Shown: positions 951-54,043 of the stretch, in pieces | Position numbering within the stretch: position 1 is the first letter of the stretch | Layout of the letters: the number at the start of each line of letters is the position of its first letter | Assembly (NCBI GenBank): GCA_035758565.1 | Contig: DASTXL010000002.1 | Location: 83,118 to 147,117 of the forward strand | Origin: Candidatus Saccharimonadales bacterium | GTDB taxonomy: Bacteria; Patescibacteriota; Saccharimonadia; Saccharimonadales; UBA10212 | DNA length: 64,000 nt | Direction: 5' to 3' | Notes under the pieces: model-generated | What the model was told of the DNA's origin: nothing | The model's input: the letters and a program-made list of their open reading frames with translations, nothing else | Databases searched by the model: none | Translations under genes and position numbers: made by a program

Positions 951-1073
951 TTTGTTTTGTTTTAAATTGTTTTTGTCTCTAAAGGTACGTCTAGTTTTAA
1001 GATAGACTAGCGCAAAATAAAAATCAATACTCTTATGGTTAAATTGGCGGTTATTAAACAACTAGGTGGTGGA

Positions 1074-1101
1074 GGTGGCGCCCCGGTTGTGGGGCGCCAC
1101 C
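1074..1101 (-). terminator. GC-rich perfect hairpin 3' of the Rpf-like gene
   Basis: GGTGGCGCCCC (1074-1084), loop GGTTGT, GGGGCGCCACC (1091-1101). The 11-bp perfect stem lies 2 nt beyond the TAG stop (1104-1106). There is no U-tract. Confidence 0.55.
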
Positions 1102-1103
1102 GT

Positions 1104-1925: not shown

Positions 1926-2121
1926 TGTCGCTAGAGAATTTAGAAATGTCTTTTAGCAAAACAACTCTAAATTCCCTAACGGCTAGGCTTAAGATGCGAA
2001 CTTATCAAGTTTGCGCGGGAGGTTTACCCGCTCCATGATAAATATTATTCGTCGCATCGGTCTAACAACCGCCACTGTTAGGGTATCGTTTTATATCTGT
2101 TATTTCAAGACTTGAATATTT

Positions 2122-2847
2122 TTATTTGAATGTTTTTAGTAAATAAAATCGCTCTAAGTTGCCTTTAGCACCTGCAACTTCGCTGTCGGCTTTATCGACA
2201 GTTGCAAAATACTTTCGGCTCCAACTCTCAAAATCTTTTAGAATTTGCCGCCGGATTTTATCGTTTTTAATTACACCTTTATTTACTTGGTTAGCGCCGG
2301 CTTCGAACTGCGGCTTTACCATGGCCACAATTTGAGTATTTTTGTTAGCCAGCTTGGCAACTGCTGGCAAAATGTCACGCAAAGAAATAAAACTCACGTC
2401 TATTACCGCAATATCCACCGGGCTGCTCAGCGATTTAAGGTCACGAATATCAGTTTTTTCGTGTAGCTCTATTCGTTCGTCACTTCTTAAACTCGGGTGT
2501 AGTTGGTCGGTGCCAACGTCTACGGCGATAACTTTTTTTGCCCCGTGTTTGAGCGCATAATCCGTGAATCCGCCGGTGCTGCTACCCACATCCAGAACAA
2601 CTTTGTCTTTAAAATCTATATTTAATTTTTGAGCCACGCTAGCCAGCTTCAAACCTGCCCGGCTGACATATTGTTCCTCTGCGATCAGTTTTATTCTGTC
2701 TTTTTGGCCAACTAAAAGCCCGGCTTTATCTTGGATTTGATCGTTAACTTTTACCTTGCCGAGCTTAATGTAGCTTTCAGCCTGCGAACGGCTAGTAACT
2801 AAACCGCGAGCTACTAATTCTTTGTCTAATCTACTGCGCGAGTTCAT
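2122..2847 (-). CDS. tlyA: TlyA-family rRNA 2'-O-methyltransferase (hemolysin A-like)
   Basis: S4-like N-terminus (RLDKELVARGLVTSRSQAESYIKLGKVKVN) followed by an FtsJ-type SAM motif (VLDVGSSTGGFTD). Confidence 0.9.
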   Translation of the reverse strand: MNSRSRLDKELVARGLVTSRSQAESYIKLGKVKVNDQIQDKAGLLVGQKDRIKLIAEEQYVSRAGLKLASVAQKLNIDFKDKVVLDVGSSTGGFTDYALKHGAKKVIAVDVGTDQLHPSLRSDERIELHEKTDIRDLKSLSSPVDIAVIDVSFISLRDILPAVAKLANKNTQIVAMVKPQFEAGANQVNKGVIKNDKIRRQILKDFESWSRKYFATVDKADSEVAGAKGNLERFYLLKTFK

Positions 2848-3337
2848 AATTTTTCTTTACCCTCTTAATCATGCGGCCTGATCTTTTTAACCTCACCTGG
2901 CTTATTAACGAAAATTCTACTACCTTAATAGATTGCCCTTCCCATATTTGCCGCTCATTTTTCTGAAGATTATTACGTAAGGTAACGTGCGGTCGATACT
3001 TTTCGCCCAAAAAATCTTTTTGATGAATTGGGAAACCGTTGTTTTCTAAGCTTTCAAAGATATCCAGATGTAGTTTTTTAAGTTGCTCCAGGTAATCATT
3101 GACGGTTATGACTTGGAGCCTGTCTTCTCTGCCCCAGTCTTCGGTTTTGCCGGCCGTTACTTCAAAACTTTTGTGGCGAACCGCAACGGCCTGAAGGATC
3201 TTATCAAGACGATCTTCATCGTCGCACGGGAACCAGGGTACGATTGTTATGTGCTGCGGCCAAACTTCGAATTCTACATTAAATCTGGCAGGTTCTAACA
3301 AAATAACCACAAGATGCTCGTTGCGCTTAGGCATCAC
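2831..3337 (-). CDS. 2H phosphoesterase superfamily protein (LigT / 2'-5' RNA ligase-like)
   Basis: Two H-x-T-x motifs: WPQHITIVPWF and RPHVTLRNN. Confidence 0.6.
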   Translation of the reverse strand: MMPKRNEHLVVILLEPARFNVEFEVWPQHITIVPWFPCDDEDRLDKILQAVAVRHKSFEVTAGKTEDWGREDRLQVITVNDYLEQLKKLHLDIFESLENNGFPIHQKDFLGEKYRPHVTLRNNLQKNERQIWEGQSIKVVEFSLISQVRLKRSGRMIKRVKKNYELAQ

Positions 3338-3809
3338 CCATCCTCAAATACGTGACTATCTTTTTGCCCTTGGATAAGCCTCGAACAGCAATATTGTCAA
3401 AGATAGCAATCTCATTTATTACCATCTCTGGATGCTCGTCAAACGGGTCCCGATCCTCAAGCTTTCGATAGTGTGGAGTATACTGACTGCCCAGCCACAG
3501 CGGGTGAGAAAATTCTACACCATTTTCCACTAGCCTTTTGAATAATTCTTCGTGGAGCTTGATCAAGGCCGGTGATTTAACACTCACCGCCTTTTTTTCA
3601 TGACCTTGACCCCCTACAGTCATCGGGCCGTCTCGAACTATGCTAAAAGGCTCGGTTTCTTTTACTACTTCATCAATAACGCACATCCTGCCACGAGCAT
3701 CAAACCACGGCAAAATTGTTATGTGTGGAGGCACCTTGTCGAAAGTCTCGCCACTGAAGTAGCGCTCAAACGTCACGGCAACCAGAGTATGCTCGAGTGG
3801 CGCCGACAT
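3327..3809 (-). CDS. 2H phosphoesterase-like paralogue with a degenerate second motif
   Basis: The first motif PPHITILPWF is conserved. The second position reads TPHYRKLE, with no H-x-T/S. It overlaps the neighbouring paralogue by 11 nt. Confidence 0.5.
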   Translation of the reverse strand: MSAPLEHTLVAVTFERYFSGETFDKVPPHITILPWFDARGRMCVIDEVVKETEPFSIVRDGPMTVGGQGHEKKAVSVKSPALIKLHEELFKRLVENGVEFSHPLWLGSQYTPHYRKLEDRDPFDEHPEMVINEIAIFDNIAVRGLSKGKKIVTYLRMGDA

Positions 3810-3819
3810 TTTAAGTTTC

Positions 3820-4383
3820 CTATTTTACCCTCTCGCGGTATTCGCCGGTTTCAGTATTTACGCTGATTAAGTCGCCGGTTTTAATAAATGCCGGCACTTT
3901 GATCGTTATGCCGGTTTCCAGCGTGGCGTCTTTGGTAATGGCGCTCGAGGTATCGCCCTTCACCGCGTTTTCGGTGTAGGTAACTTTTAAGGGCAAATTC
4001 TTTGGTAGTTCAATATTGATTACCCGCCCCTCGAATAATTGAGCGGTGACTTGGTCGCCTTCACGCATAAAGCCAGCTTTATCTTCCATGTCGCTGGCTG
4101 GTACTTCGAATTGCTCAAAACTGTCATTATCCATAAAGAAAAAAATGGCACCGTCATTATATAGGTATTGAACCGGTCGGTTCTCTACTTCGGCGCTATC
4201 AACAGTGTCGTTGCCGTGAAAGGTTTTAGACAGAACCTTGCCGTCGATCAGGCTTTTGATCTTAACATTAACCGTTGAGCCGCCTCGGCCCATAACTTTT
4301 TGACTATATTCAGTCACGCGATAGGGTATTCCATCTAGCTGGAAAACCGTGCCCTTACGCAAATTTGTTATAGATAATGTCAT
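3820..4383 (-). CDS. efp: Translation elongation factor P
   Basis: Full-length EF-P pattern: LRKGTVFQLDGIPYRVTEYSQKVMGRGGSTVNVKIKSL, three OB/KOW-like domains, about 187 aa. Confidence 0.95.
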   Translation of the reverse strand: MTLSITNLRKGTVFQLDGIPYRVTEYSQKVMGRGGSTVNVKIKSLIDGKVLSKTFHGNDTVDSAEVENRPVQYLYNDGAIFFFMDNDSFEQFEVPASDMEDKAGFMREGDQVTAQLFEGRVINIELPKNLPLKVTYTENAVKGDTSSAITKDATLETGITIKVPAFIKTGDLISVNTETGEYRERVK

Positions 4384-4388
4384 GATTT

Positions 4389-4799
4389 CTACTCCAATTT
4401 ATCAATTATTTGTTCAATGTTTGCCGACAAATGCGCCACGTCGATCGCTTCAAAAATATTGTGTTCACTGGCGGTCAAAATACATTTCTTAGCTTTGTTA
4501 AGCCAAGATTTTGCTCGCTTGGCGTTATCGAGCTGATCTTCCCTGGTTTCGCTAAGCTCATAGGCATTAGAGTAAATCCGAGCATCTACTAAATCTTGCT
4601 GCAGGTCCGAAAGAAGTTCGCGGTTCTTAGAACTTAACTCCCCAAAATTAACCTTACGCAAAATCTGCCGCACGTCGCTATCCAAGCGCTTGACCAAAAC
4701 CGATAGCGATTGACTACTCTCCATATACTCCCATGGTAAATTCATTCGTGAATGAAGTACAAGGAAAAAGCGAGCATTGGAATGAGCCGTATTTAACAT
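4389..4799 (-). CDS. Hypothetical protein
   Basis: An ORF fills the gap between efp and rpsR. The helical, charged sequence has no motif I recognise. An internal ATG at 4724 (MESSQSL) preceded by GGGAG may be the true start. Confidence 0.45.
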   Translation of the reverse strand: MLNTAHSNARFFLVLHSRMNLPWEYMESSQSLSVLVKRLDSDVRQILRKVNFGELSSKNRELLSDLQQDLVDARIYSNAYELSETREDQLDNAKRAKSWLNKAKKCILTASEHNIFEAIDVAHLSANIEQIIDKLE

Positions 4800-4855
4800 A
4801 CGGTGAGTGAAACGCGCAGGTTTTGACGCCGTAATTCGCCACGAATAATTTAGCT

Positions 4856-5059
4856 TTAGTTGGTTGCGACGAATGGTAGCAACGCGATATGCCGAGCGCG
4901 CTTTATTGCACGAGCTAATTGGCGTTGTTTAGACTCAGTCAGACCAGTCTTTTTGCGCTGTTCTATCTGGCCGTACTGGTTGATGTAGCGCTGCAAGGTT
5001 TTAAAATCCTTGTAGTCAAAAAATGCTACGTCAGTTCGGTGTTTAAAAATCTTTGCCAT
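4856..5059 (-). CDS. rpsR: 30S ribosomal protein bS18
   Basis: FFDYKDFKTLQRYINQYGQIEQRKKTGLTESKQRQLARAIKRARHIALLPF. Confidence 0.95.
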   Translation of the reverse strand: MAKIFKHRTDVAFFDYKDFKTLQRYINQYGQIEQRKKTGLTESKQRQLARAIKRARHIALLPFVATN

Positions 5060-5065
5060 TAAAAA

Positions 5066-5338
5066 TTATTCTCCGTTAACTATTGAGGCTATTTTAATAT
5101 CAAATTCTGTAGGTAAATCTACTTCAGTAAGTCCGTTTTCTAGTGCACTCTCAACGCCACTAGCCGCCAGGACAAGAGTTTCTCTGCTAAAAGGCATGAG
5201 TGTTCTTATTCTCGCTATATGTACGCCCGAACTCGACTCGAGCTCTGCCAGTCCTCTGAGCACCTGACCATATCTCTTGATAGGCCTACGAGATAAAGGC
5301 ACGCTTTTAGCTTCGGCGGGCGTTAATATTCCTTCCAT
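5066..5338 (-). CDS. Hypothetical 90-aa protein inserted between ssb and rpsR
   Basis: It exactly fills the ssb-rpsR gap and has a strong SD (AAGGAG) 4 nt upstream of the ATG. No family recognised. Confidence 0.55.
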   Translation of the reverse strand: MEGILTPAEAKSVPLSRRPIKRYGQVLRGLAELESSSGVHIARIRTLMPFSRETLVLAASGVESALENGLTEVDLPTEFDIKIASIVNGE

Positions 5339-5346
5339 AAATCTCC

Positions 5347-5820
5347 TTAAAATGGGATGTCGTCGAGGTTGATCGGCTCATCGCCAATATCCTCGATAAC
5401 TACTTCCTCGTCATCCTTAGCTTTGCTGCTTGATTTGCTGGAACTTGCAGGCGCGCTTGAGCCACCACCGTCGCTGCCGCCAGGACCACCCAAGAATGTA
5501 ACGTCCTGGGCTACAACTTCAACTTTGCTACGTTTTTGACCATCTTGCTCCCAGCTACGGCTTTGCAAACGGCCATTAACTAACGCCGGGCGGCCCTTGG
5601 TCAGATACTGGGCAACGCGTTCGCCCAAAGGCCCCCAAGCCACGATGTCGATATAATCGGTCGCTTCGGTCCAGCCGCCATCGCTATTTTTATAGCTGCG
5701 GTTCAGCGCCAGACTAAAACTGCAAACGTTATTGCCATTTGGCGTAGTACGCAGTTCTGGATCGCGCGTTAGGTTGCCCATTAGAATTACTTGATTAAAA
5801 CTTCTTGCCATGGTTCGCAT
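5347..5820 (-). CDS. ssb: Single-stranded DNA-binding protein
   Basis: OB-fold N-terminus (NQVILMGNLTRDPELRTTPNG), Gly/Ser-rich linker, acidic tail ending DDIPF. Confidence 0.95.
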   Translation of the reverse strand: MRTMARSFNQVILMGNLTRDPELRTTPNGNNVCSFSLALNRSYKNSDGGWTEATDYIDIVAWGPLGERVAQYLTKGRPALVNGRLQSRSWEQDGQKRSKVEVVAQDVTFLGGPGGSDGGGSSAPASSSKSSSKAKDDEEVVIEDIGDEPINLDDIPF

Positions 5821-5955
5821 GTTTATGCTTCCAAATTACGGCGTCAAGCCTTCCGTTGCTCCTGCGAAGTAGAGTTCCTACGTCTTAGTCCGCTACTCGG
5901 GCTTTCCTTGTACTTTGTCGCCTAAACATCCTCCTTTTCTTTACTTATCCCTATT

Positions 5956-6339
5956 CTACTCTTCTTCGTTATCGTTATCGTCGTCATCGTTAGAACCGCG
6001 CTCAGCTGCCTTCTTAGCCTTATCGGCTTTGGCGGCTTCGGCTTTGGCGATAGCTTTCAGATCTGGCTTGGTGATCAAAAAGCGAATGATCTCGTCGGTA
6101 ATGTTGAAAACTTGTTCAACACGGGCGACGTTCTCGGCCGGCATCTCAACCGTATAAAAAACGTATACGGCGAAGTCTTGTTTTTTAATTGGGTAGGCTA
6201 ACTTACGTTTGCCCCAATTGTCGGTTTTTTCGATCTTACCGCCATTGTCGGTGATGATTTTTTTGATGCGGGTCTCGGCCTTTTCTAGATCAATTTCTAG
6301 ATCAGGATGATAAAGCACAGCAATTTCGTATGTGTTAAT
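5956..6339 (-). CDS. rpsF: 30S ribosomal protein bS6, probably initiating at ATT
   Basis: S6 fold with an acidic C-terminal tail. The ORF-track start (GTG 6318, MLYHPD) would delete the conserved N-terminal x-x-Y-E-I strand. In-frame upstream codons read ATT AAC ACA TAC GAA ATT GCT GTG, with AAGGAAGGAG ending 6 nt before the ATT at 6339. Confidence 0.85.
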   Translation of the reverse strand: MNTYEIAVLYHPDLEIDLEKAETRIKKIITDNGGKIEKTDNWGKRKLAYPIKKQDFAVYVFYTVEMPAENVARVEQVFNITDEIIRFLITKPDLKAIAKAEAAKADKAKKAAERGSNDDDDNDNEEE

Positions 6340-6375
6340 AACGAACTCCTTCCTTTGGCTCCAAGCTTTCAGTTC

Positions 6376-6506
6376 GCATCAGCCTGTCTGCTAGCAAAGC
6401 CAGCAGCTCCGCTGATGCTTTTGGCGAATTGCGTTGTCGCTTATGCTCAGTCGTTCGCTCAACGTATTTCTATACGCTTCGCTCACTCCTCGCTAGCTCC
6501 TAGCAT
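6376..6506 (-). repeat. Structured repeat element of about 130 nt, copy L, in the rpsF 5' leader
   Basis: Nested hairpin (GCATCAGC 6376-6383 / GCTGATGC 6411-6418 enclosing CTGCT/AGCAG), then TTTTGGCGAATTGC, hairpin CGTAT/ATACG (6462-6476), ACGCTTCG, TCCTAGCA. It is colinear, with near-identical spacing, with 21704-21832 inside fpg. Confidence 0.55.
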
Positions 6507-6585
6507 TTCATCCAAAACTAAAACCTTGGCTTCGGCTGAGCACCTAATTAAGTTGTCCCAACCTGAATTAGTTTTTAGTAGGCAA

Positions 6586-6614
6586 ATTGTAGCACTTTAC
6601 CCCTTATAAATCAA
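6586..6614 (-). promoter_or_regulatory. Sigma-70-type promoter of the rpsF operon
   Basis: The minus strand reads TTGATT-N17-TACAAT (TTGATT = 6614-6609, TACAAT = 6591-6586). This implies a 5' leader of about 240 nt. Confidence 0.6.
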
Positions 6615-6617
6615 CTG

Positions 6618-7667
6618 CTAAACGGCCAGTCTGTGCCCTAGGCGTTTATCAAGCTCGTTGCTAAGAGATTTGATTACCTCTTTTTCTTTGTATGGATCCT
6701 GAACTACGTGGCGAGCTATAAAAATATGAGCTTGTTTGGGGTATGCTCTTGGCGTAGAAATCCCCTGTTTTTTATTGTTCTTTTTCTTCCGCTTGCCGGT
6801 AGCTGCCGGTTCAGATTTTTTTGGAGGATCTAACCGTTGTCGGGGCAATAAGCCGCCGTCCCAGGCCCGCAAGTAATCAATCTCAATAGGTTCTACTGCG
6901 GCTTTGGCCGCGACTCTGAACAGTCTCCGGCCTAGCTTAATCTTGTCTTCCTCATTAGTACAGGTAAGGAAATCGAGCACCTCGTCTTGGTATTTATGAA
7001 TGTCTGGAATTTTTTGTTTAACCACTTGGTTAATAATTATGTCTTGGACTTTTTTAACATTTTCTACCCAGACTTCGTTGTGAGCCCACATATATTGCCG
7101 CTCGGCTAAGGTGAGCCGCCTTATTACTGGTATAGACGGTCTGACATCCACTGCTTCTGGACCGATGTACCTGGCTGCCATAAGGAGAAGTTTGCCTATT
7201 CGCGCAATCCTAGTCTTTGGGAGCGGCGTCCGTTCGAAATCTTTAGTAAATCTTTTATGCAGTTTTACAGGTACGCGCTGCACCCTGGAGTATCGGAGCG
7301 CTTTGTTTAAGTTGTCGCCCTTTTTCCGGAGTTCGTTTTCGGGGCCGTAAAGGTGGTGTCTGTCTTGACTATCATCCTCTCCTTGTTCTTCACGACTGGT
7401 ACCTTCTTCATCTTTAACCAGCATTTCATTTTGAAATTCTGTCCTATGGCTAGCTGGCACAAACAAAACCAAAGGCATTCCGAGGCTATCCACCGGGAAA
7501 AGTTTTGAATCAATCTCTGCCTGTGTTAACTCTCTGACTATCAAGCTATCATCGTCACTAAAAAGAGCCCGCGGGGGCTCTTCTGGTGAAGTTGAAAAAA
7601 TGGGCTCAAATTGAACCGGCTCTATGGCCGGCGACATGGCAGTGGTGAGCTTTAATTGCTCGGACAT
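6618..7667 (-). CDS. Hypothetical protein (349 aa, acidic N-terminal half, basic patch KRKKKNNKK)
   Basis: Long uninterrupted ORF with background composition. No motif recognised. Confidence 0.55.
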   Translation of the reverse strand: MSEQLKLTTAMSPAIEPVQFEPIFSTSPEEPPRALFSDDDSLIVRELTQAEIDSKLFPVDSLGMPLVLFVPASHRTEFQNEMLVKDEEGTSREEQGEDDSQDRHHLYGPENELRKKGDNLNKALRYSRVQRVPVKLHKRFTKDFERTPLPKTRIARIGKLLLMAARYIGPEAVDVRPSIPVIRRLTLAERQYMWAHNEVWVENVKKVQDIIINQVVKQKIPDIHKYQDEVLDFLTCTNEEDKIKLGRRLFRVAAKAAVEPIEIDYLRAWDGGLLPRQRLDPPKKSEPAATGKRKKKNNKKQGISTPRAYPKQAHIFIARHVVQDPYKEKEVIKSLSNELDKRLGHRLAV

Positions 7668-7868
7668 GAACTTTCTACCATATTTGTTTTACCTCTACGA
7701 CTTAATTCTATTAAGCTCGTGCTTATTTGACAATTATAAAATTTACAATTGTTACTAACCTGTTTTAGGAGTATTGTGAGCTTAGGTTCCTGGTCGCTGG
7801 AGTTTTTTAGCGGAGGAGCTATCGGTCTTAAACAACTAGGCACAGAAGGAGGCTCGGCTTTGAGCGCA

Positions 7869-8438
7869 ATGACAGAATTCGCCGGCCTTCTCTGGTCGCG
7901 AGCAACACCTGCACGTCGTCCGCTCGGACGGCTGCATACCTGGCTGGACAGTCGGCTTCGCCCGCGCAAAGACCTGATCGGCTGGCTGTGGCGCATGTTT
8001 CACAACCGGGAGTGGCAGAAGAGCGCATTGCAGAGTGCCGCCTTCTGGGTGCTGGCCACTTTGGTCATCTCCCGTCTGCTGCACCAGCTCGGTCACGGCT
8101 GGTACGTGAGCGTCGGCGTCAGCTTGGGGATGGACAGCGTTACGTACGCCATCAACAAGCTCTGGATCTGGCGCAAGCGCAATGTCGGCATCAAGAAGAG
8201 CTGCAAACGCAATTTCAGCGCGTGGGCAGCGTTCTTCGCCTTCAACGCCGCACTGGCCTGGATGTTGATGCATCCGGCTGGCGTCGGCACCATGCACGCC
8301 CGCTACATCCTCGGCGCCGTGGGCTTCGTAGCCAACCCGGTGATCTTCACCGTCCGTGACCGGCTGGTCTTCAGCCCGGAGAAGATCCAAGAGGTATTCG
8401 CGGAGTTCCGGCAAATCCTGTTCAAGACCGTGGCGTGA
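7869..8438 (+). CDS. GtrA-like small polytopic membrane protein (high-GC islet 2)
   Basis: Four predicted TM helices and an INKLWIWRKR motif resembling the GtrA-family N-x-x-W-x-F-R box. AAGGAGG lies at 7847-7853. Start candidates are TTG 7860, ATG 7869 or ATG 7995. The track ORF start at 7749 lies in the AT-rich flank. Confidence 0.6.
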   Translation: MTEFAGLLWSRATPARRPLGRLHTWLDSRLRPRKDLIGWLWRMFHNREWQKSALQSAAFWVLATLVISRLLHQLGHGWYVSVGVSLGMDSVTYAINKLWIWRKRNVGIKKSCKRNFSAWAAFFAFNAALAWMLMHPAGVGTMHARYILGAVGFVANPVIFTVRDRLVFSPEKIQEVFAEFRQILFKTVA

Positions 8439-8466
8439 GCCCGGGTCGCTCGCAAGCGATCCGGGC
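8439..8466 (+). terminator. GC-rich hairpin directly after the GtrA-like stop codon
   Basis: GCCCGGGTCGCT (8439-8450), loop CGCA, AGCGATCCGGGC (8455-8466). This is a 12-bp stem with one G-T pair. Confidence 0.55.
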
Positions 8467-8576
8467 CACGTCTCACCCCTGTTTTATAAATCCTAGTCCT
8501 TTATTATTCGTCTGACATGCTTGCCCCGCAGCGATTCCTGAATGTAGAAGAGAATGAATAATTCTATTTCGAAATA

Positions 8577-10814
8577 TCAAGAATCAGTGTCGAGGTCGTC
8601 ATAGACATCGCCTTCGCCGGCCGGAGCTATACCGGCAGGCTCTGGTTCGCTGCTGCCAAATACATCATCAGCACCCGACACCAATACTTCACGCGGTCGG
8701 TTAGTGCCGTCGCTTGGAGCAATTATGCCCCGCTCTTCCATGATGTCCATCAGGCGCGAAGCCCGGCCATAGCCAATGCGCAGTTTGCGCTGTAGCAGGC
8801 TGGTGCTGGCCTTACCAGCGGTGGCTACAACGCCCACGGCGTCTTTGAGCATATCGTCATCGTCGCCGCCGTCCATGCTCGCCACCACGCTGCCCTTGCC
8901 GTTGAGCTGCACTGGTTGAGAGATAACTTCGTCGTCATACTGCGGCGGACGCTGAGCTCGCAAAAAGTCACAAATCTTGCTCGTCTCGGAGTCGCTAATC
9001 AAAGCACCCTGTACACGCTTAGGTTTAGTGAATTCCGGAATGTTAAACAAGGCATCACCTCGGCCAAGCAGCTTTTCGGCACCAACTTGGTCGATAATCG
9101 TCCGGCTATCGACTTGGCTAACCGTAGTAAAGGCGATGCGCGCCGGCACGTTAGCCTTGATCAAACCGGTAATCACGTCCACACTCGGGCGCTGGGTGGC
9201 CACAACCAAGTGGATTCCGGCAGCACGGGCTTTTTGCGCCAAACGCACAATCAAGGCTTCCACATCTCGGGCAGCCATCATCATTAGATCAGCCAGCTCA
9301 TCAATAACTATCACTATATAAGGCATGCCTTCCTCTTTTTTGAGGTCGTTGTACTCGCCGATATTGCGCTTGCCAACTTCAGAAAAGGCTTTAAGTCGGC
9401 GCTCCATTTCGGCCACAGCCCACTTAAGAGCACTGATACATTTCTCTGGCTCGGTAATCACAGGTGCCAGCAGATGTGGAATATCCCGGTAAGGCGCCAT
9501 TTCTACCTGTTTAGGGTCAACCAAGATTAGTTTCATATCAGACGGCGAGTTGCGGTACAGCAAACTGGTTAGAAGCGCATTGATCATAACAGACTTACCC
9601 GAGCCAGTCTGGCCGGCAATAAGAAGGTGCGGCATACGTTCCAGGTCGCCAACGACCGGCAGGCCGGTAATGTCTTTGCCAATTACAAAACTTAAAGACC
9701 CCTTGGAGCCATGCCATTCACTGCTAGAAAGCAGGCCGTGCAAGGTAACGGTAGCCGCCTTGACGTTCGGCACCTCAATACCCACTGCCCTTTTACCCGG
9801 GATTGGTGCTTCCATTCGAATGCTAGTAGCCGCTAGATCCAACGCCAGGTTATTCTCTAAGGCTGTCATGCGGGTCAGCTTAACGCCTGTGGGCGGTTTG
9901 AGCGTGTATTGGGTAACGCGCGGGCCCACATTGGCGCCCTCAACCTCTACGTCGATGTTAAAGTTGGCGTAGGTTTCTTTAATAATCTCGGCGTTACCTT
10001 TAACGTCGCCAGCATCGGCTTTGTCTTGTTTAGAGTTAAGCAATTCTAGGCCCGGGAATTTCCAATCAGGGTCGCTGGCCGTAGTTAAAGCAGCGTGGTC
10101 TTGGGTTGGCGCCAACTTTTCGGCGGTGTTACGCAAAGAAGACATACGTGGCGCCCCGGCTACGGCAGCGTGGTGCTCAACCGGCACTCCTTCATGAAGC
10201 TCGAAGCTCGGTTCCATTTTCTTCTTGAGCTGAGCCAGATCTTCTTCGGCTTCTTTAGGTTCACGCTTAAATAGTTCGGCCAGCTTAAGAATTGCTTTTG
10301 GTTCGATAGAAAACGTAAAGAACACGGCAAAAATACTCAAAATAAAGAACACCAGACTTGCCAAGAACTTGCCAAGCGCTCCGGCTAGAGATTCGCCAAC
10401 AGCTTGTCCCACCTGGCCACCGTGACCGCCGACCCAAGCGCTGGGATCAGGGGCATTAAGGGCTGCATGACTAATAAATAAGGTGTTGAAAAAACTAGCT
10501 GTAAAAACCAACAGCGCTATTGTACCCACCATGTTAGGCAGGGGTATGCGCTGGTCTTCGCTCAAAAACTTCAGTGATCCAAGATAAAGCAAAGCCAAGG
10601 GCAAAATAATAGCGGCGATGCCAAAGGCCCACCAGGCCCCGTGCCATAAGCTATGCGGTAACGGAGCACTGACAAAAGCCCCAAAGGCTAGCACAATAGC
10701 AGCAACTATTAAGGCAACAGCACCAACGCCGCGCCAAAAACCAGAGTTCTTCTTCTCTGCTTTCTTTTTGGCGCCACTACCTTTGGGCCGACCGCGTTTT
10801 GATTTTTTAGCCAT
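8577..10814 (-). CDS. ftsK: DNA translocase FtsK/SpoIIIE
   Basis: N-terminal TM helices, Walker A GQTGSGKS, Walker B VIVIDELADL, C-terminal gamma domain LLQRKLRIGYGRASRLMDIME. Confidence 0.95.
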   Translation of the reverse strand: MAKKSKRGRPKGSGAKKKAEKKNSGFWRGVGAVALIVAAIVLAFGAFVSAPLPHSLWHGAWWAFGIAAIILPLALLYLGSLKFLSEDQRIPLPNMVGTIALLVFTASFFNTLFISHAALNAPDPSAWVGGHGGQVGQAVGESLAGALGKFLASLVFFILSIFAVFFTFSIEPKAILKLAELFKREPKEAEEDLAQLKKKMEPSFELHEGVPVEHHAAVAGAPRMSSLRNTAEKLAPTQDHAALTTASDPDWKFPGLELLNSKQDKADAGDVKGNAEIIKETYANFNIDVEVEGANVGPRVTQYTLKPPTGVKLTRMTALENNLALDLAATSIRMEAPIPGKRAVGIEVPNVKAATVTLHGLLSSSEWHGSKGSLSFVIGKDITGLPVVGDLERMPHLLIAGQTGSGKSVMINALLTSLLYRNSPSDMKLILVDPKQVEMAPYRDIPHLLAPVITEPEKCISALKWAVAEMERRLKAFSEVGKRNIGEYNDLKKEEGMPYIVIVIDELADLMMMAARDVEALIVRLAQKARAAGIHLVVATQRPSVDVITGLIKANVPARIAFTTVSQVDSRTIIDQVGAEKLLGRGDALFNIPEFTKPKRVQGALISDSETSKICDFLRAQRPPQYDDEVISQPVQLNGKGSVVASMDGGDDDDMLKDAVGVVATAGKASTSLLQRKLRIGYGRASRLMDIMEERGIIAPSDGTNRPREVLVSGADDVFGSSEPEPAGIAPAGEGDVYDDLDTDS

Positions 10815-10823
10815 CTTTAAACC

Positions 10824-10829
10824 ATTATA
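10824..10829 (-). promoter_or_regulatory. TATAAT -10 box 9 nt upstream of the ftsK ATG (possible leaderless or very short leader)
   Basis: The minus strand reads GGGTATAATGGTTTAAAGATG. There is no SD between the box and the ATG. Confidence 0.35.
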
Positions 10830-10888
10830 CCCTTAAGCGTTAGGGGATTATAGATCCTAACGTTGTTGTAATTATAACATGTTTACGC

Positions 10889-11047
10889 TTATTCTGTCAA
10901 TGATCTGTCAGAATCGTCCTCAGTCTCCACGACGATTATCTCGACATCAGAACCCGCGGTGCAACCCAAATTACGAAGAAACTCGGGCATTTCTTCCTCG
11001 GGTGTATTATCTACGCCTTCGCCGCGTAAAATTATCTGTCGACCCAT
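10889..11047 (-). CDS. Possible 52-aa acidic small protein
   Basis: Manual translation gives MGRQIILRGEGVDNTPEEEMPEFLRNLGCTAGSDVEIIVVETEDDSDRSLTE. It is below the ORF-track length cutoff and has no family support. Confidence 0.25.
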   Translation of the reverse strand: MGRQIILRGEGVDNTPEEEMPEFLRNLGCTAGSDVEIIVVETEDDSDRSLTE

Positions 11048-11109
11048 AAAGCACTCCTCTTCTGCCGAAGATTATACTTCAACCCTGCGACAGAAGCGAC
11101 GATAGCTCT

Positions 11110-13197
11110 TTAATCGACGCGGGCGTCTTGGTTGAGCAAGCGTTGGCGCATAGCTGCAAATCGGCGCTGTTGCTCTAATGCAATCTCTTCCGGCGTCTTC
11201 TCGCGCTGAGGTTCAGCATTGTCGTTACCTGGCTTGTGCATGTCGTTATTGACCTTTTCTGATCGGCCACCTATGACGTTGACCACCGGAATTACAATTG
11301 GGCTACGTTGAGTTTGCTCGTACAAGAAATGGGTAACGTAATCTTTGAGCTCAGCCTTAAAGCGATCTAGATCAACGCGTTTATAGCGTTGCTGCACTGC
11401 CCTTCTTAGCTCGGCTCTAAAAGCGTTCATCAGCTCCTCAGAGTCCTTCATGTAAATGAAGCCGCGACTGATGATGTCTGGGCTAGTCAGCAATGCGCCG
11501 GTCTTTTTATCTATCGTTAGAACCACGGCTACCAAACCTTCTTCGCTTAGAAGCACGCGGTCTTTTACTACCACGCTAGAGACAATTGAGCCGGTTTGAT
11601 CGACCAACACAGTGCCGCGGGGCACCTGGCCGTCGATTTCCATTTTGTCGCGAGTTATGCAAATAACATCGCCGTTTTCGGCATTTACGCAGTTGGCTCT
11701 TTGCATACCACGCTCTACGGCAATATCGATGTGACGCTTCTTAGAGCGATATGGTCCCCAGATCGGAATAAAGAACTTGGGCTTTAGCATCTCGATAATG
11801 TCGCCGTATTCTTCTTGACTAGAGTGACCAGAAACATGCAGCGGACCAATGTGGTCGATGTCGTGATTACGGTGCTCAAAGACATGCACGCCTTTGCGCA
11901 TTAAATCATCGACCATAACGCCAATTAAGGCATCGTTACCAGATTCTGGAATTGGCGTGCTAGACAGCACAACCGTGTCTTGTTCTTTCAGGCTGACATA
12001 CTTGTGTTCGCCCAAGCTCATGCGGTTCAAGGCTGAGTTGGGCTCGCCCTGCCCGCCAGTACAAACTACGACAACTTCGTTGTCTTTGAGGTTCGGCACA
12101 CTGGCAATCGGCACAAAAGTGCCTTTTGGAATCTTCATGAAACCATTGCGCACCGCCATTTCTAGCGTAGAAATCATACTGCGACCATCAAGCGCGATCT
12201 TGCGATTATGCTTCACTGCGGCGTTAACAATCATCTGAATACGGTTGACGTTGGTCGAGAAGATAGCCACAAAGATGCGGCCCGGCGCTTGTTCCATAAT
12301 ATCTACGAAGCTCTGTTCGATAGTTGATTCACTCGGCGTGCGGCCGGGGCGTTCGGTGGTGGTTGATTCGCTCATCAAGACCAACACGCCCTCACGGGCC
12401 AGTTCTTGCAGGCGTTCGGTGTCAGTGCGCTCGTGATCAAGCGGATTTGGGTCTAGGCGGAAGTCGCCGGTGTTCACCAAACGGCCAACCGGCGTATCGA
12501 CCACAATCATGGTACTGCCTGGGATAGAGTGCGTGACACGCACCAGCTCGATATAAAATTCACCGAGTTTTAGGCGCTCGTGAGTGTCTTCGTTCATGGC
12601 AACGGTTTTAAGTTCAAAGCCTTCTGGCATCGGCAAGCCAAAGTTCTGGAAGATTTCCTCAACTCGGCCAATGGTAAAACGGCTGCCGTAAACCGGTACG
12701 CCCGGGTATTTTGGCAAAATGTGCGGCATACCGCCCATATGATCTAGGTGGCCGTGGCTGATCACGAAACCGCGCAACTTGGATTTGATTTGGTCTAGGT
12801 AGGTGGTGTCAGCAATACCGTAATTGATGCCCGGCAGATCAACGCCGAGGTCGTTGCCACAGTCGATAACGATGGCGTCATTTTGATATTCGATAACCAG
12901 CATATTCTTAGACCCACCGGCGTCGAAACCGCCCAGGCCGATAATCTTGAGCCGGGGACTATCGTCGATAAAGTTAGCCCGGCGCTTAGGCTGATCGCTC
13001 TGCATGTTGCTGGCGTCAGAATACTGGTTGGCAATGCGGTTAGCGTCTTGTACGGCTTGCTTTTGGGCGCGCAGCGCGGCACCGCGGCTAACACTGCGGC
13101 CAGTGGCCGTTACGCCGCCGTTATTGTTACGTGGCGGGCGGTTGTTGCCAGAACGCTGGTTGCCCGGTTTGGGCTTATTGTTACTTTTTGGATTCAT
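11110..13197 (-). CDS. rnj: Ribonuclease J (metallo-beta-lactamase / beta-CASP) with a basic N-terminal extension
   Basis: The HxHxDH motif SHGHLDHMG, the beta-CASP region and the RNase J C-terminal domain are present. The N-terminus is a low-complexity stretch, KPKPGNQRSGNNRPPRNNNGG. Confidence 0.9.
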   Translation of the reverse strand: MNPKSNNKPKPGNQRSGNNRPPRNNNGGVTATGRSVSRGAALRAQKQAVQDANRIANQYSDASNMQSDQPKRRANFIDDSPRLKIIGLGGFDAGGSKNMLVIEYQNDAIVIDCGNDLGVDLPGINYGIADTTYLDQIKSKLRGFVISHGHLDHMGGMPHILPKYPGVPVYGSRFTIGRVEEIFQNFGLPMPEGFELKTVAMNEDTHERLKLGEFYIELVRVTHSIPGSTMIVVDTPVGRLVNTGDFRLDPNPLDHERTDTERLQELAREGVLVLMSESTTTERPGRTPSESTIEQSFVDIMEQAPGRIFVAIFSTNVNRIQMIVNAAVKHNRKIALDGRSMISTLEMAVRNGFMKIPKGTFVPIASVPNLKDNEVVVVCTGGQGEPNSALNRMSLGEHKYVSLKEQDTVVLSSTPIPESGNDALIGVMVDDLMRKGVHVFEHRNHDIDHIGPLHVSGHSSQEEYGDIIEMLKPKFFIPIWGPYRSKKRHIDIAVERGMQRANCVNAENGDVICITRDKMEIDGQVPRGTVLVDQTGSIVSSVVVKDRVLLSEEGLVAVVLTIDKKTGALLTSPDIISRGFIYMKDSEELMNAFRAELRRAVQQRYKRVDLDRFKAELKDYVTHFLYEQTQRSPIVIPVVNVIGGRSEKVNNDMHKPGNDNAEPQREKTPEEIALEQQRRFAAMRQRLLNQDARVD

Positions 13198-13240
13198 TTG
13201 TTGTCCTTTCTTTTCTTTAAGATTTTTAAAATGAATTTCT

Positions 13241-13807
13241 TTAATTAATGGCGGCCAGGACGCGTGGGATACGAGAGAAATCGGTTAACAGCGTCTGGCG
13301 CATACCGCCGTTATAAAGAGCGGCGGCGGGGTGAAAAAGCGGCATATACACTTGGCCGTTGAACCTTTTGGGCTGGCCATGACAGCGGCTTATTACAAGT
13401 CCCGGCAAGAGGCTATCCATGCTGTGGCGGCCAAGGGTGACCACCAGCTTGGGCTTGATAGCGTCTAGCTGGGCCTGCAAGTAAGGCAGAAATGCTTTCT
13501 TTTCTTCCGGCAATGGATCCCGATTGTTCGGTGGCCGGTACTTAACTATGTTGGTAATGTACACGTCTGATCTTTCTAATCCTATGCTTTCAAGCATTTC
13601 GTTTAAGAACTTGCCAGCGGCGCCTACGAAAGGTTTGCCTTGCTCGTCTTCGTTCTTGCCCGGTGCCTCGCCGATAAAAACGATCTCGGCATCCGGGTTG
13701 CCATCGCCAAACACCAACTGAGTAGCTGTAGCCGCTAGTTCCGGACAAATGTTGTTGGCCAGGATTTCTGCTTTGATCTTATCTAGCTCTTGCTGTTTGG
13801 ATGACAT
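13241..13807 (-). CDS. Uracil-DNA glycosylase, family 4
   Basis: GEAPGKNEDEQGKPFVGAAG motif and LFHPAAALY motif. Confidence 0.85.
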   Translation of the reverse strand: MSSKQQELDKIKAEILANNICPELAATATQLVFGDGNPDAEIVFIGEAPGKNEDEQGKPFVGAAGKFLNEMLESIGLERSDVYITNIVKYRPPNNRDPLPEEKKAFLPYLQAQLDAIKPKLVVTLGRHSMDSLLPGLVISRCHGQPKRFNGQVYMPLFHPAAALYNGGMRQTLLTDFSRIPRVLAAIN

Positions 13808-13808
13808 T

Positions 13809-14027
13809 TTAACGATTTGTTGAATAACGGATACCGAGCTCCACTCGCCGAACGGCCAAGGTCAAGCAAAACAATGTAATGGCGTAAAGCAGCAGGTTGC
13901 CGGTATTAATTGCCCAGGAAGCGAATCCGTAGCCGATTAACAGGATGACGATTGCCGCTACAATGTTAAACCACAATTTATGAACTATTAGCTCGTTTTG
14001 CGAACGACGGCTAACTCTTCGTGCCAC
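13809..14027 (-). CDS. Small membrane protein (two TM helices)
   Basis: Hydrophobic segments WFNIVAAIVILLIGYGFASW and LLLYAITLFCLTLAV. It is tightly packed against the UDG gene. Confidence 0.45.
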   Translation of the reverse strand: MARRVSRRSQNELIVHKLWFNIVAAIVILLIGYGFASWAINTGNLLLYAITLFCLTLAVRRVELGIRYSTNR

Positions 14028-14135
14028 TTTACTGCGCCTCCGGCTTTTGAGGACAACCTACGGTACCATCACCCCACAAAGTAAACTTTGCAGGGACCCC
14101 GGTTTTCCTCAACGCACCTTTTGGAATAAATCCAA

Positions 14136-14153
14136 ATCCGGCAATTGCCGGAT
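14136..14153 (-). terminator. Intrinsic terminator after pnp
   Basis: Palindrome ATCCGGCAATTGCCGGAT, followed on the minus strand by TTGGATTTATT. Confidence 0.6.
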
Positions 14154-14193
14154 CGGTGCTACTCTTTTCCCTTGAAATACCCATTCTACCTCC

Positions 14194-16335
14194 CTACTTG
14201 TCTTTGCTTAGCTCGCGGGCAGCGGCCTTCATGGAAAGCTGCAAACGACCACGATCATCTATAGCTACTAGTTTAACAGTAACTTTATCGCCTTCTTTCA
14301 AAACATCACTTGGTTTTTCGACGCGCTCTTCGCGAATCTCGCTTACGTGCACCAAGCCGTCTTTACCCGGCAGTATCTGAACAAAGGCACCAAAGTCCAT
14401 AACATTCACCACTGGAACGTCTTTGTATATATGGCCGACTTCCGGCTCGGCGGTAATGGATTCAATCCACTGGCGGGCAGCATCAATGCTTTTTTTGTCG
14501 GGGCTAGCTATCATAACCGTGCCGTCGTCTTTAATATCGATTTCAGCGCCGGTTTCACCGGTTATTTTCTGGATGGTTTCACCGCCCTTGCCGATCACTT
14601 CGCGAATTTTATCCGGGTTAATAGTCATAGTTTCTACCCGCGGAGCGTACGGGCTCAGTTCTTTACGAGGTTCTGGCAGGGTCTCAAGCATATGCTCTAA
14701 GATTTTAGCTCGGCCTTCCTTGCCCTGCTCTAGGGCGTCTTTGAGTACTTCTACGGGCAAGCCGTGAACCTTCATGTCCATCTGTAGAGCGGTGATGCCC
14801 TTTGAAGTACCGGTGACCTTAAAGTCCATGTCGCCGGCAAAGTCTTCGGCATCGGCAATGTCGCTCAAAATGTAGGCCTTACCGTCTTCGAGCATTAAGC
14901 CCATAGCAATGCCGCTAACTGGCGCTTTAATAGGCACGCCAGCATCCATCAAAGCCAAGCAAGACGAACAGGTAGCCGCCATAGATGTTGAGCCGTTCTG
15001 GCTCATAATTTCGGTTACAGAACGAATAGCATATGGAAATTCGGCTTCGCTTGGCAGTACGGCCGATAGAGCGCGCTCCGCCAAATAACCGTGACCGATT
15101 TCGCGGCGGCCCGGGCTGCCAAGGCGGCGAACTTCGCCAACCGTATAGCCGGGAGCGTTGTAGTGGTGCATGTAACGACGTTCACCGTCGCTTACTTCCA
15201 TGGTGTCTACCAGCTGAGCGTAGCTTAATGGCGCCAAGGTAACAATGTTCATACCCTGCGTCATGCCGCGAGTAAATATGCTAGAACCGTGAGCTCGGGG
15301 CAATAGACCCACCTCGCTGGATAACGGGCGAATTTCGGCAAGCTTACGGCCATCCGGACGAATGCCATCTTCTACGATACCTTGACGAACATCCTTATGA
15401 ATGGCCATCTGCAAGGCTTCGTCGTAGTCGCTCTTTTGATCCTCAAATTCTTCACCTAGTTTCTCGGCAAAGTATTCGCGCATTTGCTCGCGCAGGTCGT
15501 TGACCAACTCATTGCGCTCCGGATAAGGTGCTCGCAGCGGGTGGCCTAATTTGCCTTCGACCCACTTATCAACGGCTTTTTGGACCTCTTCATCGGGCTT
15601 TAGAAGCTCATATTCCTGTGGCTGCACACCGACTGCTTGGCAAAGTTTGTTTTGCAGTTCAATAGCTGGCTGGATAGCAGCGTGAGCGTAAGTCAGAGCC
15701 TCTACGATCTGCTCTTCGCTAACTTCGCGGGCCCCTGCCTCCACCATCATGATGGCATCCTTGGTACCGGCAACAACTAGATCGAGATCGCCGTTATCAA
15801 GCTCTTCACTAGACAAGAAGGCTTGCGGCTTGCCGCCTTTCAAACCAACGCGTACACCGGCTACCGGGCCGTCAAACGGCGCGCCAGTCAGCATAAAGGC
15901 GGTGCTCACGGCAATCATGGCAATAACGTCCGGGCGAAAGTTCGGATCCATAGAAAGTACGGTGGCCACGCCCTGAACTTCGTGACGGTAGCCTTTCGGC
16001 CACAACGGACGGACTGGGCGGTCAATCAGGCGGCCAATCAAAACGGCTTCGTCGCTTGGCCTGCCCTCGCGCTTAATAAAGCGGCTGCCGCTGATTTTGC
16101 CAGCGGCATAAAATTTTTCTTCGTAATCAATGCTTAGCGGGAAGAAATCCAGTCCTTGGACTTTTTCCGGGCTGACCATAGCTGTGCCAAGTACGACAGT
16201 GTCGCCATAAGTCACCAGTACACTGGCGGAAGTTCTAAAACCCACGCGGTTTACTTCAAGGCTGAGTTCACGACCGCAAAAATCGGTACTGACTTTAGTT
16301 ATTTTTTTACCATACGGGTTGATTATTTCACCCAT
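14194..16335 (-). CDS. pnp: Polyribonucleotide nucleotidyltransferase (PNPase)
   Basis: Two RNase PH domains, KH (IGKGGETIQKI) and S1 (VMDFGAFVQILPGKDGLVHVSEI). Confidence 0.97.
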   Translation of the reverse strand: MGEIINPYGKKITKVSTDFCGRELSLEVNRVGFRTSASVLVTYGDTVVLGTAMVSPEKVQGLDFFPLSIDYEEKFYAAGKISGSRFIKREGRPSDEAVLIGRLIDRPVRPLWPKGYRHEVQGVATVLSMDPNFRPDVIAMIAVSTAFMLTGAPFDGPVAGVRVGLKGGKPQAFLSSEELDNGDLDLVVAGTKDAIMMVEAGAREVSEEQIVEALTYAHAAIQPAIELQNKLCQAVGVQPQEYELLKPDEEVQKAVDKWVEGKLGHPLRAPYPERNELVNDLREQMREYFAEKLGEEFEDQKSDYDEALQMAIHKDVRQGIVEDGIRPDGRKLAEIRPLSSEVGLLPRAHGSSIFTRGMTQGMNIVTLAPLSYAQLVDTMEVSDGERRYMHHYNAPGYTVGEVRRLGSPGRREIGHGYLAERALSAVLPSEAEFPYAIRSVTEIMSQNGSTSMAATCSSCLALMDAGVPIKAPVSGIAMGLMLEDGKAYILSDIADAEDFAGDMDFKVTGTSKGITALQMDMKVHGLPVEVLKDALEQGKEGRAKILEHMLETLPEPRKELSPYAPRVETMTINPDKIREVIGKGGETIQKITGETGAEIDIKDDGTVMIASPDKKSIDAARQWIESITAEPEVGHIYKDVPVVNVMDFGAFVQILPGKDGLVHVSEIREERVEKPSDVLKEGDKVTVKLVAIDDRGRLQLSMKAAARELSKDK

Positions 16336-29328: not shown

Positions 29329-29904
29329 TTATAAGTTCAGAGTTGATTTAATCTGTAATTTAAAACCCTCTAAATCATTGTCGTTGTTGGTTAAAAAAAT
29401 ATCAGACTTGGCTTTGACAGCCGACATACTCAAGGTAGCCGCATCGCCGCCTTCGTGCATTTCGTCCTCTTCTTCTTTCAGGAATTGATCAAACGTTTTT
29501 TGGTCTTCGGCGCTGCGCGACCTAGAAGAAACGCGCTGGTAACGCAGTTTAGGATCGGCATCAACCCAAACTACTTTGCCGCCCAATTGGTGGATTTCAT
29601 CGGCTTCGCCGGCGTTTCTAAGATTAGAGATAACCAAGCCAGCGTATTTGCCGTCTGTTGCTTTAAAAACTTCAACCGCTTTATCCATGAGGATTCCTAG
29701 GCCAAATTCCCGGCGCCACTCGGCGCTAATTTTCCTTAAATTCTGGCGCTCGATTGGCAAATTCCGACGCCTGGCTTCGTCACGCAGCAAATCCGACACA
29801 GAAACAAACAGCCAGTCATAATCTTCGGCGAGAATTTGACCCAGAGTATCTTTGCCAGAGCCGTTTGTACCAGAAATACCAATTAACTGGAGCGGCTTAC
29901 GCAT
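29329..29904 (-). CDS. P-loop nucleotide/nucleoside kinase-like protein
   Basis: Walker [13 protein letters not shown] and an overall small-kinase layout (dephospho-CoA/adenylate kinase-like). The substrate cannot be inferred. Confidence 0.55.
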
Positions 29905-53496: not shown

Positions 53497-53622
53497 AATT
53501 CCTGTCAAGAGATATGAAGCTTATGCTTGCCGTAACTTAATTAATGTTGACCGATTAAAATCAGAGGAGTAGACTCTTTTTATTCCAGGCCACCCCCCCC
53601 CAAGTGGAAAGGCAGGTGCGTT

Positions 53623-54033: not shown

Positions 54034-54043
54034 CCGGATTCGC

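Follow-up and report, generated by a model that had tools for sequence, protein, structure and literature searches.

Pfam places the membrane domain of dolichyl-phosphate mannose synthase (DPMS) and the GtrA proteins in a single model, PF04138 (GtrA_DPMS_TM; InterPro IPR007267). The membrane domain of Pyrococcus furiosus DPMS has been described as GtrA-like and as a possible flippase, and GtrA-type proteins are reported to lack, in general, the polar-pocket motifs of DPMS (2026; PMC12992685). In Listeria GtcA, R95 in helix 3 and N132 in helix 4 are essential (PMC7389260). A literature search found no paper tying GtrA to Saccharibacteria and none on GC-rich islets in Saccharibacteria. Here, a GC-rich gene for a putative, divergent GtrA-like protein is described from a Candidatus Saccharimonadales bacterium (assembly GCA_035758565.1, contig DASTXL010000002.1). 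The window is the whole stretch of 64,000 nt that was analysed, and the feature occupies its positions 7,668-8,576. The initial annotation had read the high GC of this islet as the mark of a foreign gene.

The islet is probably better explained as a clade-restricted accessory gene that resides at a slot beside ftsK and is exchanged within its clade. Its high GC would then be a maintained property of the gene and not the footprint of a recent arrival. In this explanation, which is held as a whole with reasonable but far from full confidence, the islet would be one transcription unit with an AT-rich conserved leader, a Shine-Dalgarno (SD) sequence, a coding sequence (CDS) of 192 aa and a stop-codon hairpin. 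The unit would encode a divergent, lineage-restricted member of the superfamily of GtrA/DPMS four-helix membrane domains. The gene would be a long-standing accessory resident of the variable ftsK-rpsF gap in one Saccharimonadales clade, always convergent to ftsK, with deeply diverged alleles apparently swapped among lineages at that slot. As candidate causes, and candidates only, of the excess G+C at third codon positions (GC3), one can name synonymous-site selection and GC-biased gene conversion in a slot that recombines. The features of the region are as follows, with numbers such as L088 denoting loci in relatives.

5956-6318, minus strand: rpsF (of rpsF-ssb-rpsR), which is conserved and bounds the variable slot on the left.
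6618-7667, minus strand: a hypothetical gene of 349 aa (hyp349), the divergently transcribed neighbour and a second, independent occupant of the slot.
7772-7777, plus strand: candidate -10 hexamer TATTGT (family consensus TAYTGT), the first part of the conserved upstream region.
7796-7805, plus strand: leader block GCTGGAGTTT, unchanged in L088 and L089 and still discernible in L002.
7824-7835, plus strand: leader block GGTCTTAAACAA (family consensus GGTCTTCGACAA), overlapping a 13-mer at 7828-7840.
7846-7852, plus strand: SD sequence AAGGAGG, 7 nt 5' of the TTG at 7860, with GGAGG-type sites equally placed in relatives.
7860-8438, plus strand: CDS of 192 aa for a predicted divergent GtrA-superfamily protein with four transmembrane helices, with a TTG start and a TGA stop (8436-8438), GC 0.615 and GC3 0.81.
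8432-8472, no strand assigned: GC-rich hairpin that includes the stop codon, between the convergent genes.
8577-10814, minus strand: ftsK, the convergent neighbour and conserved right edge of the variable slot (Pfam FtsK_SpoIIIE, FtsK_alpha and FtsK_gamma).

The genes on the minus strand follow the order rpsR, ssb, rpsF, hyp349, ftsK and RNase J (11110-13197). The GtrA-like open reading frame (ORF) is the lone plus-strand gene between hyp349 and ftsK. The ORF list thus bears out the initial annotation, which had seen one plus-strand gene amid minus-strand neighbours; its AAGGAGG and its 12-bp GC hairpin at the stop codon (8439-8466) are likewise real.

The position of the gene is shared among relatives. 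Synteny was counted in 11 loci, comprising every family member with readable DNA or a gene table: the window, L001, L002, L003, L005, L084/L085, L086, L087, L088, L089 and the P0005 contig. All of these carry the gene in the ftsK-rpsF slot on the strand opposite ftsK, and in nine of them the gene and ftsK are directly convergent. In L086, a gene of 265 aa lies between the two, and L003 has a short ORF, recognised by eye, that resembles the FtsK C-terminus. The full order rpsR-ssb-rpsF-hypothetical(-)-gene(+)-ftsK(-)-RNase J is found in L084 and L089, whose flanks are long, and L088 is arranged likewise, with rpsR unchecked.

The shift in composition is large and significant. The hand counts of the initial annotation (38/60 G+C at 8041-8100 and 22/60 at 8521-8580) are exact. 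GC is 0.625 at 7845-8470, vs 0.362 at 7668-7844 and 0.377 at 8471-8576, and a GC walk places the islet edges at 7838 and 8481. The region is among the top three in the window, which has a mean GC of 0.490 and a standard deviation of 0.037 in 600-bp windows. GC3 of the gene is 0.813, compared with 0.506 +/- 0.054 in 50 other genes of the window (z = +5.7). Comparable outliers in the window are limited to two other genes, 1104-1925 (0.71) and 53623-54033 (0.85). The leader (7770-7845) has a GC of 0.47 and the sequence further upstream 0.28. High GC is restricted to the CDS and the hairpin. Strand orientation was rejected as a source of the excess because the gene of another islet (1104-1925) runs on the minus strand and GC3 is normal in other genes on the plus strand.

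The same excess recurs throughout the family. GC3 of the gene is higher than that of flanking genes in all 11 loci (0.55-0.85 vs 0.37-0.66), as the following values illustrate.

Window: gene.81, flanks.54/.45.
L001: gene.62, flank.45.
L002: gene.85, flanks.66/.44.
L003: gene.68, flank.56.
L005: gene.55, flank.47.
L084: gene.69, flanks.55/.37.
L086: gene.76, flanks.44-.60.
L087: gene.80, flanks.62/.46.
L088: gene.76, flanks.60/.46.
L089: gene.78, flanks.57/.48.

Synonymous sites are saturated, with a synonymous divergence (dS) of 1.4-1.9 between most pairs, and GC3 is still high. A single ancient import would have lost its signature at such divergence. The excess must thus be maintained in place or renewed by repeated replacement, and its presence in every allele points to a maintained property of the gene. 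The gene is real and under purifying selection: the ratio of nonsynonymous to synonymous divergence (dN/dS) among relatives is 0.14-0.27, and the closest pair, L088/L089, has a dS of 0.57 and a dN/dS of 0.14.

These data also dispose of an artefact, in the form of a chimeric assembly or a spurious ORF with the real feature on the other strand. The source is a metagenome-assembled genome (MAG), and a co-extensive antisense ORF of 192 aa does exist (7836-8414). However, the same architecture is found in 10 independent assemblies, dN/dS is well below 1, and the plus frame of the GtrA-like ORF shows the order GC3 > GC1 > GC2. In relatives the antisense ORF is shortened to 99 aa (L002), 88 aa (L003) and 129 aa (L089), and it was rejected as a by-product of high GC3. 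An artefact can be considered refuted.

The unit shared among homologous loci exceeds the CDS. Three upstream blocks, TAYTGT, GCTGGAGTTT and GGTCTTCGACAA, are common to these loci. TATTGT at 7772-7777 aligns with TACTGT or TATTGT in L088, L089, L002, L086 and L001, and we infer that it may be a promoter element; a simple sigma-70 scan did not call it. The sequence GGTCTTCGA(C/A)AA lies 30-45 nt 5' of the start codon in L002, L003, L086, L088 and L089, with a variant in L001 and L084. From the GC step, the conserved unit reaches about 70 nt further upstream, where the sequence is of ordinary composition or AT-rich. The step thus marks where the CDS begins and not an insertion joint.

The same holds for a 13-mer, TTAAACAACTAGG, that the initial annotation had noted beside the GC step. 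It does occur exactly twice in the window, at 1054 and 7828. With 112 repeat pairs of 13 nt or longer in the window, sharing a 13-mer is nothing unusual in itself, and only its position near two GC steps is of note. The copy at 7828 overlaps the GGTCTT(C/A)(G/A)ACAA block, and the conserved leader continues about 70 nt further upstream. At this islet, the 13-mer is therefore part of the gene's own leader. An inverted near-copy at 8492-8504 has three mismatches and no counterpart in L001; 28 matches as good as this one occur where 20.8 are expected. Given the leader overlap, the relatives without a matching repeat at the right end, and the frequency of 13-mers shared by chance, the 13-mer was dismissed as an att-like or target-site repeat.

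The hairpin is a further shared element. Its 12-bp stem (8439-8450 / 8455-8466) has one G.U pair and a 4-nt loop, and six more pairs prolong it to 8432-8472, which encloses the stop codon. The folding energy is -35.3 kcal/mol (z = -5.1 vs shuffles). In each of the 10 loci that were folded, the stop codon is overlapped or closely followed by a hairpin of -30 to -48 kcal/mol; the stem sequences differ, and most loci have a TTTATAA-like tail 3' of the hairpin. A terminator scan did not call a canonical intrinsic terminator at the hairpin; there is no adjacent U-tract, and the nearest T-run, TGTTTTAT, starts 11 nt past the stem. The hairpin is probably a transcription stop or an RNA-stabilising element for one or both convergent genes. 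An Rfam scan of 7600-8600 gave only a chance microRNA match, on the hairpin.

Against this background, a recent horizontal acquisition can be weighed. According to this view, which was that of the initial annotation, the gene came from a high-GC donor such as an actinobacterial host, and the GC steps are the edges of inserted DNA. The GC3 deviation and the sharp edges at 7838 and 8481 speak for it, as do the slots of the closest ftsK relatives (L007, L004 and L008), which lack the gene. So do two more GC-rich islets in the window, one of which encodes a domain resembling resuscitation-promoting factors (Rpf) or transglycosylases, with weak matches to NCBIfam RpfC and Rpf. Resuscitation-promoting factors are typical of Actinobacteria, and cultured Saccharibacteria live on Actinobacteria and take up DNA. 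However, the reading is largely undone by the relatives. In ten other loci a homologue fills this slot in the same orientation and is accompanied by a homologous leader and hairpin, all alleles are GC3-rich, and the conserved unit reaches beyond the GC step. No donor lineage could be named either: among 1.84e9 representatives there is no homologue outside a small family of about 40 clusters, and every readable context is Saccharimonadales-like. The best Saccharimonadales copy has 59% core identity to the window protein and 47-50% over the whole protein. The gene has no match in tblastn searches of phages and plasmids or in PADLOC and PHROGs, no integrase-like ORF was found, and positions 1-15000 contain no tRNA. 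What might be expected of a recent islet is thus present in part, namely the departure in composition and the conflict of the gene tree with a flanking core gene; a genome-specific anomaly, a donor lineage and mobility signatures at the borders were not found. A recent acquisition from outside is strongly disfavoured. What survives of the foreign idea is that the gene is accessory and that its tree disagrees with that of ftsK.

The ftsK-rpsF gap is a variable slot across Saccharimonadales (loci L004-L083; window 6319-8576). By tblastn, rpsF follows ftsK in 71 of 80 species-level loci, and the gap between them is 137-5627 bp long (median 992 bp), compared with 2259 bp in the window. Among these 80 species-representative GTDB ftsK loci, a homologue within 6 kb is found only in L005. 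The gene is therefore present in one of the 71 loci with a complete gap and absent from 70, including the nearest, L007. There, the slot holds an unrelated low-GC gene for a polytopic membrane protein of 282 aa that has no Pfam family and likewise converges on ftsK. All placeable carriers group in a single clade of a neighbour-joining FtsK tree, together with the non-carriers L004, L006, L007 and L008.

Within the clade of the window's slot, the gene tree and the ftsK tree conflict. L001 and L005 share 95% identity in ftsK and 32% in the gene, L001 and L087 share 90% and 22%, and the window and L001 share 78% and 59%. The FtsK motor domain is very conserved, and the DNA identity between L001 and L005 is only 76%. 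These are thus not close strains, but the swapped ranking is still an argument that, among three deep allele classes, one has replaced another at least once. Exchange among Saccharimonadales is likely, within the clade rather than from an outside donor.

Such exchange could also account for the composition if homologous recombination through the conserved ftsK and rpsF flanks kept bringing alleles into the slot from unsampled carriers of higher GC. GC3 would then mark recency, and the window allele (0.81) would be a recent one. The strength of the tree conflict with its three deep allele classes, the wide spread of GC3 among alleles (0.55-0.85), the patchy presence within the clade, and the varying size and content of the slot across 71 species fit this model. 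However, it needs many independent imports at the same place and in the same orientation, and no high-GC pool is visible among 15 billion public proteins. The leader travels with the gene yet is not GC-rich, and L088 and L089, which come from one sample and differ by a dS of 0.57, keep GC3 values of 0.76 and 0.78. Recurrent replacement from such a pool is unlikely as the source of the GC excess. A long-resident gene with maintained composition remains the preferred explanation.

The assignment of the protein to the GtrA superfamily holds, although at the superfamily level only. The window protein appears to be a divergent branch and not a curated member, as judged from profile matches and a predicted model. 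The profile search that the initial annotation had proposed for its 4-TM GtrA-like protein gave E = 0.0023 and 18.5 bits for the window protein (profile positions 21-117 of 117), which is below the gathering cutoff of 26.1 bits for PF04138. Individually, 15 of the 37 aligned family members match this model (E <= 0.01), the best at 1.5e-7. NCBIfam has no match for the window protein. The closest database protein is the identical VFT49_02995, a hypothetical protein of 189 aa from a Candidatus Saccharimonadales MAG, encoded on a contig of 355,811 bp. Among 5.8e9 proteins there were 5-10 hits, none from a cultured organism, with only five relatives in the word-indexed search. An exhaustive profile search of 1.84e9 representatives returned 40 proteins (about 40 clusters), nearly all of 150-215 aa. 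A metagenome scan with a six-sequence alignment added two further loci.

An AlphaFold2 (AF2) model from six sequences was poor, with a predicted local distance difference test (pLDDT) score of 61, and was replaced by a run with 37 sequences (pLDDT 91.3). The latter model has long helices at 50-77, 80-103, 111-137 and 144-170, as well as N- and C-terminal helices, and displays the four-TM 2+2 architecture. Hydropathy reveals three strongly hydrophobic segments; helix 2 is weaker and bears D92. The two top Foldseek matches in the PDB are structures of P. furiosus DPMS, 9ep0 (probability 0.99) and 5mlz (0.96), with 14-15% identity over 145 columns and a TM-score of 0.43-0.44. Every other PDB match has a probability of at most 0.18. 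A sequence-profile search of the PDB gave noise only, and Foldseek against the viral library BFVD gave nothing significant. An hhalign comparison with 20 enterobacterial GtrA proteins gave a weak E-value of 0.019 over 57 columns. This is probably because the reference set is 80-99% identical (Neff, its effective number of sequences, is 1.6). The half comprising helices 3-4 lined up, with R117 of the window protein opposite a conserved arginine of YfdG; R117 is not among the residues conserved in at least 75% of the family. The conserved residues are W52, S59, W63, G78, D92, R107, N129, G155, N159-P160, F163 and F171, with R107 and N129 each found in 31/37 members, D92 in 30/37 and N159 in 29/37. 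D92, N129 and N159 lie inside helices and R107 at the end of helix 2, and a residue-by-residue match to GtcA is not established.

Several observations weigh against the preferred explanation. The window protein itself stays under the Pfam gathering score (18.5 vs 26.1 bits), the Foldseek E-values for 9ep0 and 5mlz are only 0.05-0.17 at a TM-score of 0.43, and the alignment to enterobacterial GtrA is weak (E = 0.019). The loci are phylogenetically non-independent, so that 11/11 overstates the support. Since the closest ftsK relatives of the window (L007, L004 and L008) lack the gene, vertical descent needs several losses. The data on the GC3 excess are also compatible with repeated allele import from an unsampled high-GC pool. 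Finally, there is no glycosyltransferase among the 40 window ORFs scanned and none beside the gene in any locus, which leaves a sugar-handling function without contextual support.

As for function, the protein may serve the modification of an envelope glycan by handling polyprenyl-phosphate-linked sugars in the membrane, either translocating them itself or assisting a translocase. This inferred role is drawn by analogy to GtrA, GtcA and Rv3789, and the envelope-glycan part comes from the family name only. A three-component Gtr-type glycosylation system would have a polyprenyl-phosphate glycosyltransferase (GtrB/CsbB) and a GT-C transferase encoded nearby. Neither type of partner was found among the 40 window ORFs, and in every locus the gene is flanked by ftsK, a hypothetical protein and rpsF. 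A protein with a GtrA-like fold might instead be a small transporter, a membrane-bound anchor or adaptor, or a factor in immunity or host interaction that diverges through conflict. The missing glycosyltransferase partner is consistent with such a role, as are the extreme divergence of alleles (18-32% identity, vs 83-95% for ftsK) and the unrelated polytopic membrane protein in the L007 slot. The family-specific N-terminal motif W.W.L.H...WQKS and the extra N-terminal helical segment of some alleles can be read in the same way, and the flippase role of Rv3789 is itself disputed (PMC12992685). However, the gene is under purifying selection and lacks a PADLOC or PHROG match. The intrahelical residues D92, N129 and N159, together with R107, recall the essential R95 and N132 of GtcA (PMC7389260). 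A role other than sugar handling is therefore doubtful, although it is a serious minority possibility.

Alignment with relatives supports a revised start codon. The public annotation starts the gene at the ATG at 7869, which gives 189 aa. The relatives align an ATG or GTG with the TTG at 7860, followed by AGC-GC, which yields M-S-A. Because of this alignment, TTG 7860 is taken as the orthologous start of a 192-aa product, and the SD spacing also favours it. Within the leader, the block GGTCTTC is partly complementary to the SD (GAAGGAGG; window 7824-7852). RNAalifold keeps several GGTCTTC-SD pairs in 4/4 leaders, with a weak consensus energy of -3.9 kcal/mol. The fold of the single leader sequence is no better than shuffles (z = +0.4), and no significant leader structure was found. 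The GGTCTTC block may sequester the SD, but this is only a hint.

The second occupant of the slot, hyp349, matches no Pfam, PADLOC or PHROG family. Weak relatives of it (22-32% identity) are found in the same slot in L002, L005, L023, L047, L052, L066, L076 and L079, whether the GtrA-like gene is present or not. By eye, hyp349 and its slot relatives have a short His-rich motif in common (HH.FHP / NHYGVVHP).

The window contains two other GC-rich islets. Islet 1 (1050-1950) holds an ORF on the minus strand (1104-1925) for a protein of 273 aa with a C-terminal transglycosylase/Rpf-like domain, and a hairpin at 1065-1110. The protein scores 24.8 bits against Pfam PF06737 (cutoff 27), and matches NCBIfam RpfC at 4e-7 and a PHROG transglycosylase at 1e-5. 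GC3 of its gene is 0.71 (z = +3.8). L005 has a partial homologue (35% identity) at its far end, and islet 1 may therefore also be common to relatives. Islet 3 (53590-54130) lies between groES and an amidinotransferase-like gene, and holds an ORF on the plus strand (53623-54033) for 136 aa. This ORF has a GC of 0.67 and a GC3 of 0.85 (z = +6.3), and no match in Pfam, PADLOC or PHROGs. A perfect 11-bp hairpin follows it (54044-54068), and CCCTGTT occurs twice in the next 70 nt (54071 and 54127). In L087, a GC-rich gene (3-521, minus strand; GC 0.64, GC3 0.81) for a membrane-anchored protein is found two genes from the GtrA-like gene, which suggests that GC-rich small envelope genes may recur in the clade.

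Three further observations were made elsewhere in the window. Two full-length tandem sigma-70 genes of the RpoD type (29897-31054 and 31098-32237, minus strand) lie directly downstream of dnaG. A gene on the plus strand (35970-40031) encodes a protein of 1353 aa with a lamin-tail domain and right-handed beta-helix repeats, which is likely a large surface protein. Two adjacent, overlapping paralogues (2831-3337 and 3327-3809, minus strand) belong to the 2'-5' RNA ligase superfamily.

The finding is modest overall, and its curious aspect is the maintained composition. A GC step with a z near +6 would usually be taken as a sign of horizontal transfer, and here composition alone misleads. Genome scans should be read with this in mind, since diverged relatives have the gene, with its GC excess, at the very same site. 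The gene also defines a small, unannotated branch of the GtrA superfamily that is private to one clade of ultrasmall epibiotic bacteria with poorly known envelopes. Since the slot varies between species, the gene is a candidate determinant of surface variation. Given population data, a maintained GC3 excess that is limited to the CDS could serve as a test case for biased gene conversion in Patescibacteria. A bolder and quite improbable extension can be put forward as speculation. In this clade, the ftsK-rpsF gap might be an allele-swapping slot for a GtrA-like membrane protein that is private to the clade and diverges fast. GC-biased gene conversion at a recombination hot spot, or synonymous selection, would actively keep the CDS GC3-rich while synonymous sites turn over fully. 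The GC islets of these genomes would then be recombining envelope genes, possibly tied to the specificity of the epibiont for its host, and not high-GC imports.

Three described systems can be set beside this locus. Recombining loci for surface polysaccharides and serotypes are replaced by recombination through conserved flanks and are usually AT-rich. The locus of the window resembles them in its fixed slot between conserved genes, its divergent alleles that conflict with the tree of flanking genes, its patchy presence, and the other membrane proteins that fill the slot in relatives. Unlike them, it consists of a single small gene without glycosyltransferases rather than a multigene glycan cluster, and its anomaly is GC-rich.

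The membrane domain of P. furiosus DPMS (5mlz and 9ep0) is the best and sole meaningful structural match of the window model. However, the window protein has no fused catalytic glycosyltransferase domain.

Members of the GtrA family, such as GtrA of Shigella phage SfX, E. coli YfdG, GtcA of Listeria and Bacillus, and M. tuberculosis Rv3789, are likewise small proteins with four long helices in two pairs. Each helix pair ends in an N-x-x-x-(I/V/F)-(W/F)-x-x-R-like motif, which appears in the window protein as INKLWIWRKR after helix 2 and as NPVIFTVRDRLVF after helix 4. In contrast to the 120-aa enterobacterial GtrA, the predicted window protein has 192 aa, with an extra N-terminal helical segment and the family-specific W.W.L.H...WQKS before helix 1. 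Its gene is not beside gtrB/gtrC-type genes, whereas yfdG forms a cluster with yfdH and yfdI. Nor is it phage-borne; it occupies a fixed slot in one Saccharimonadales clade.

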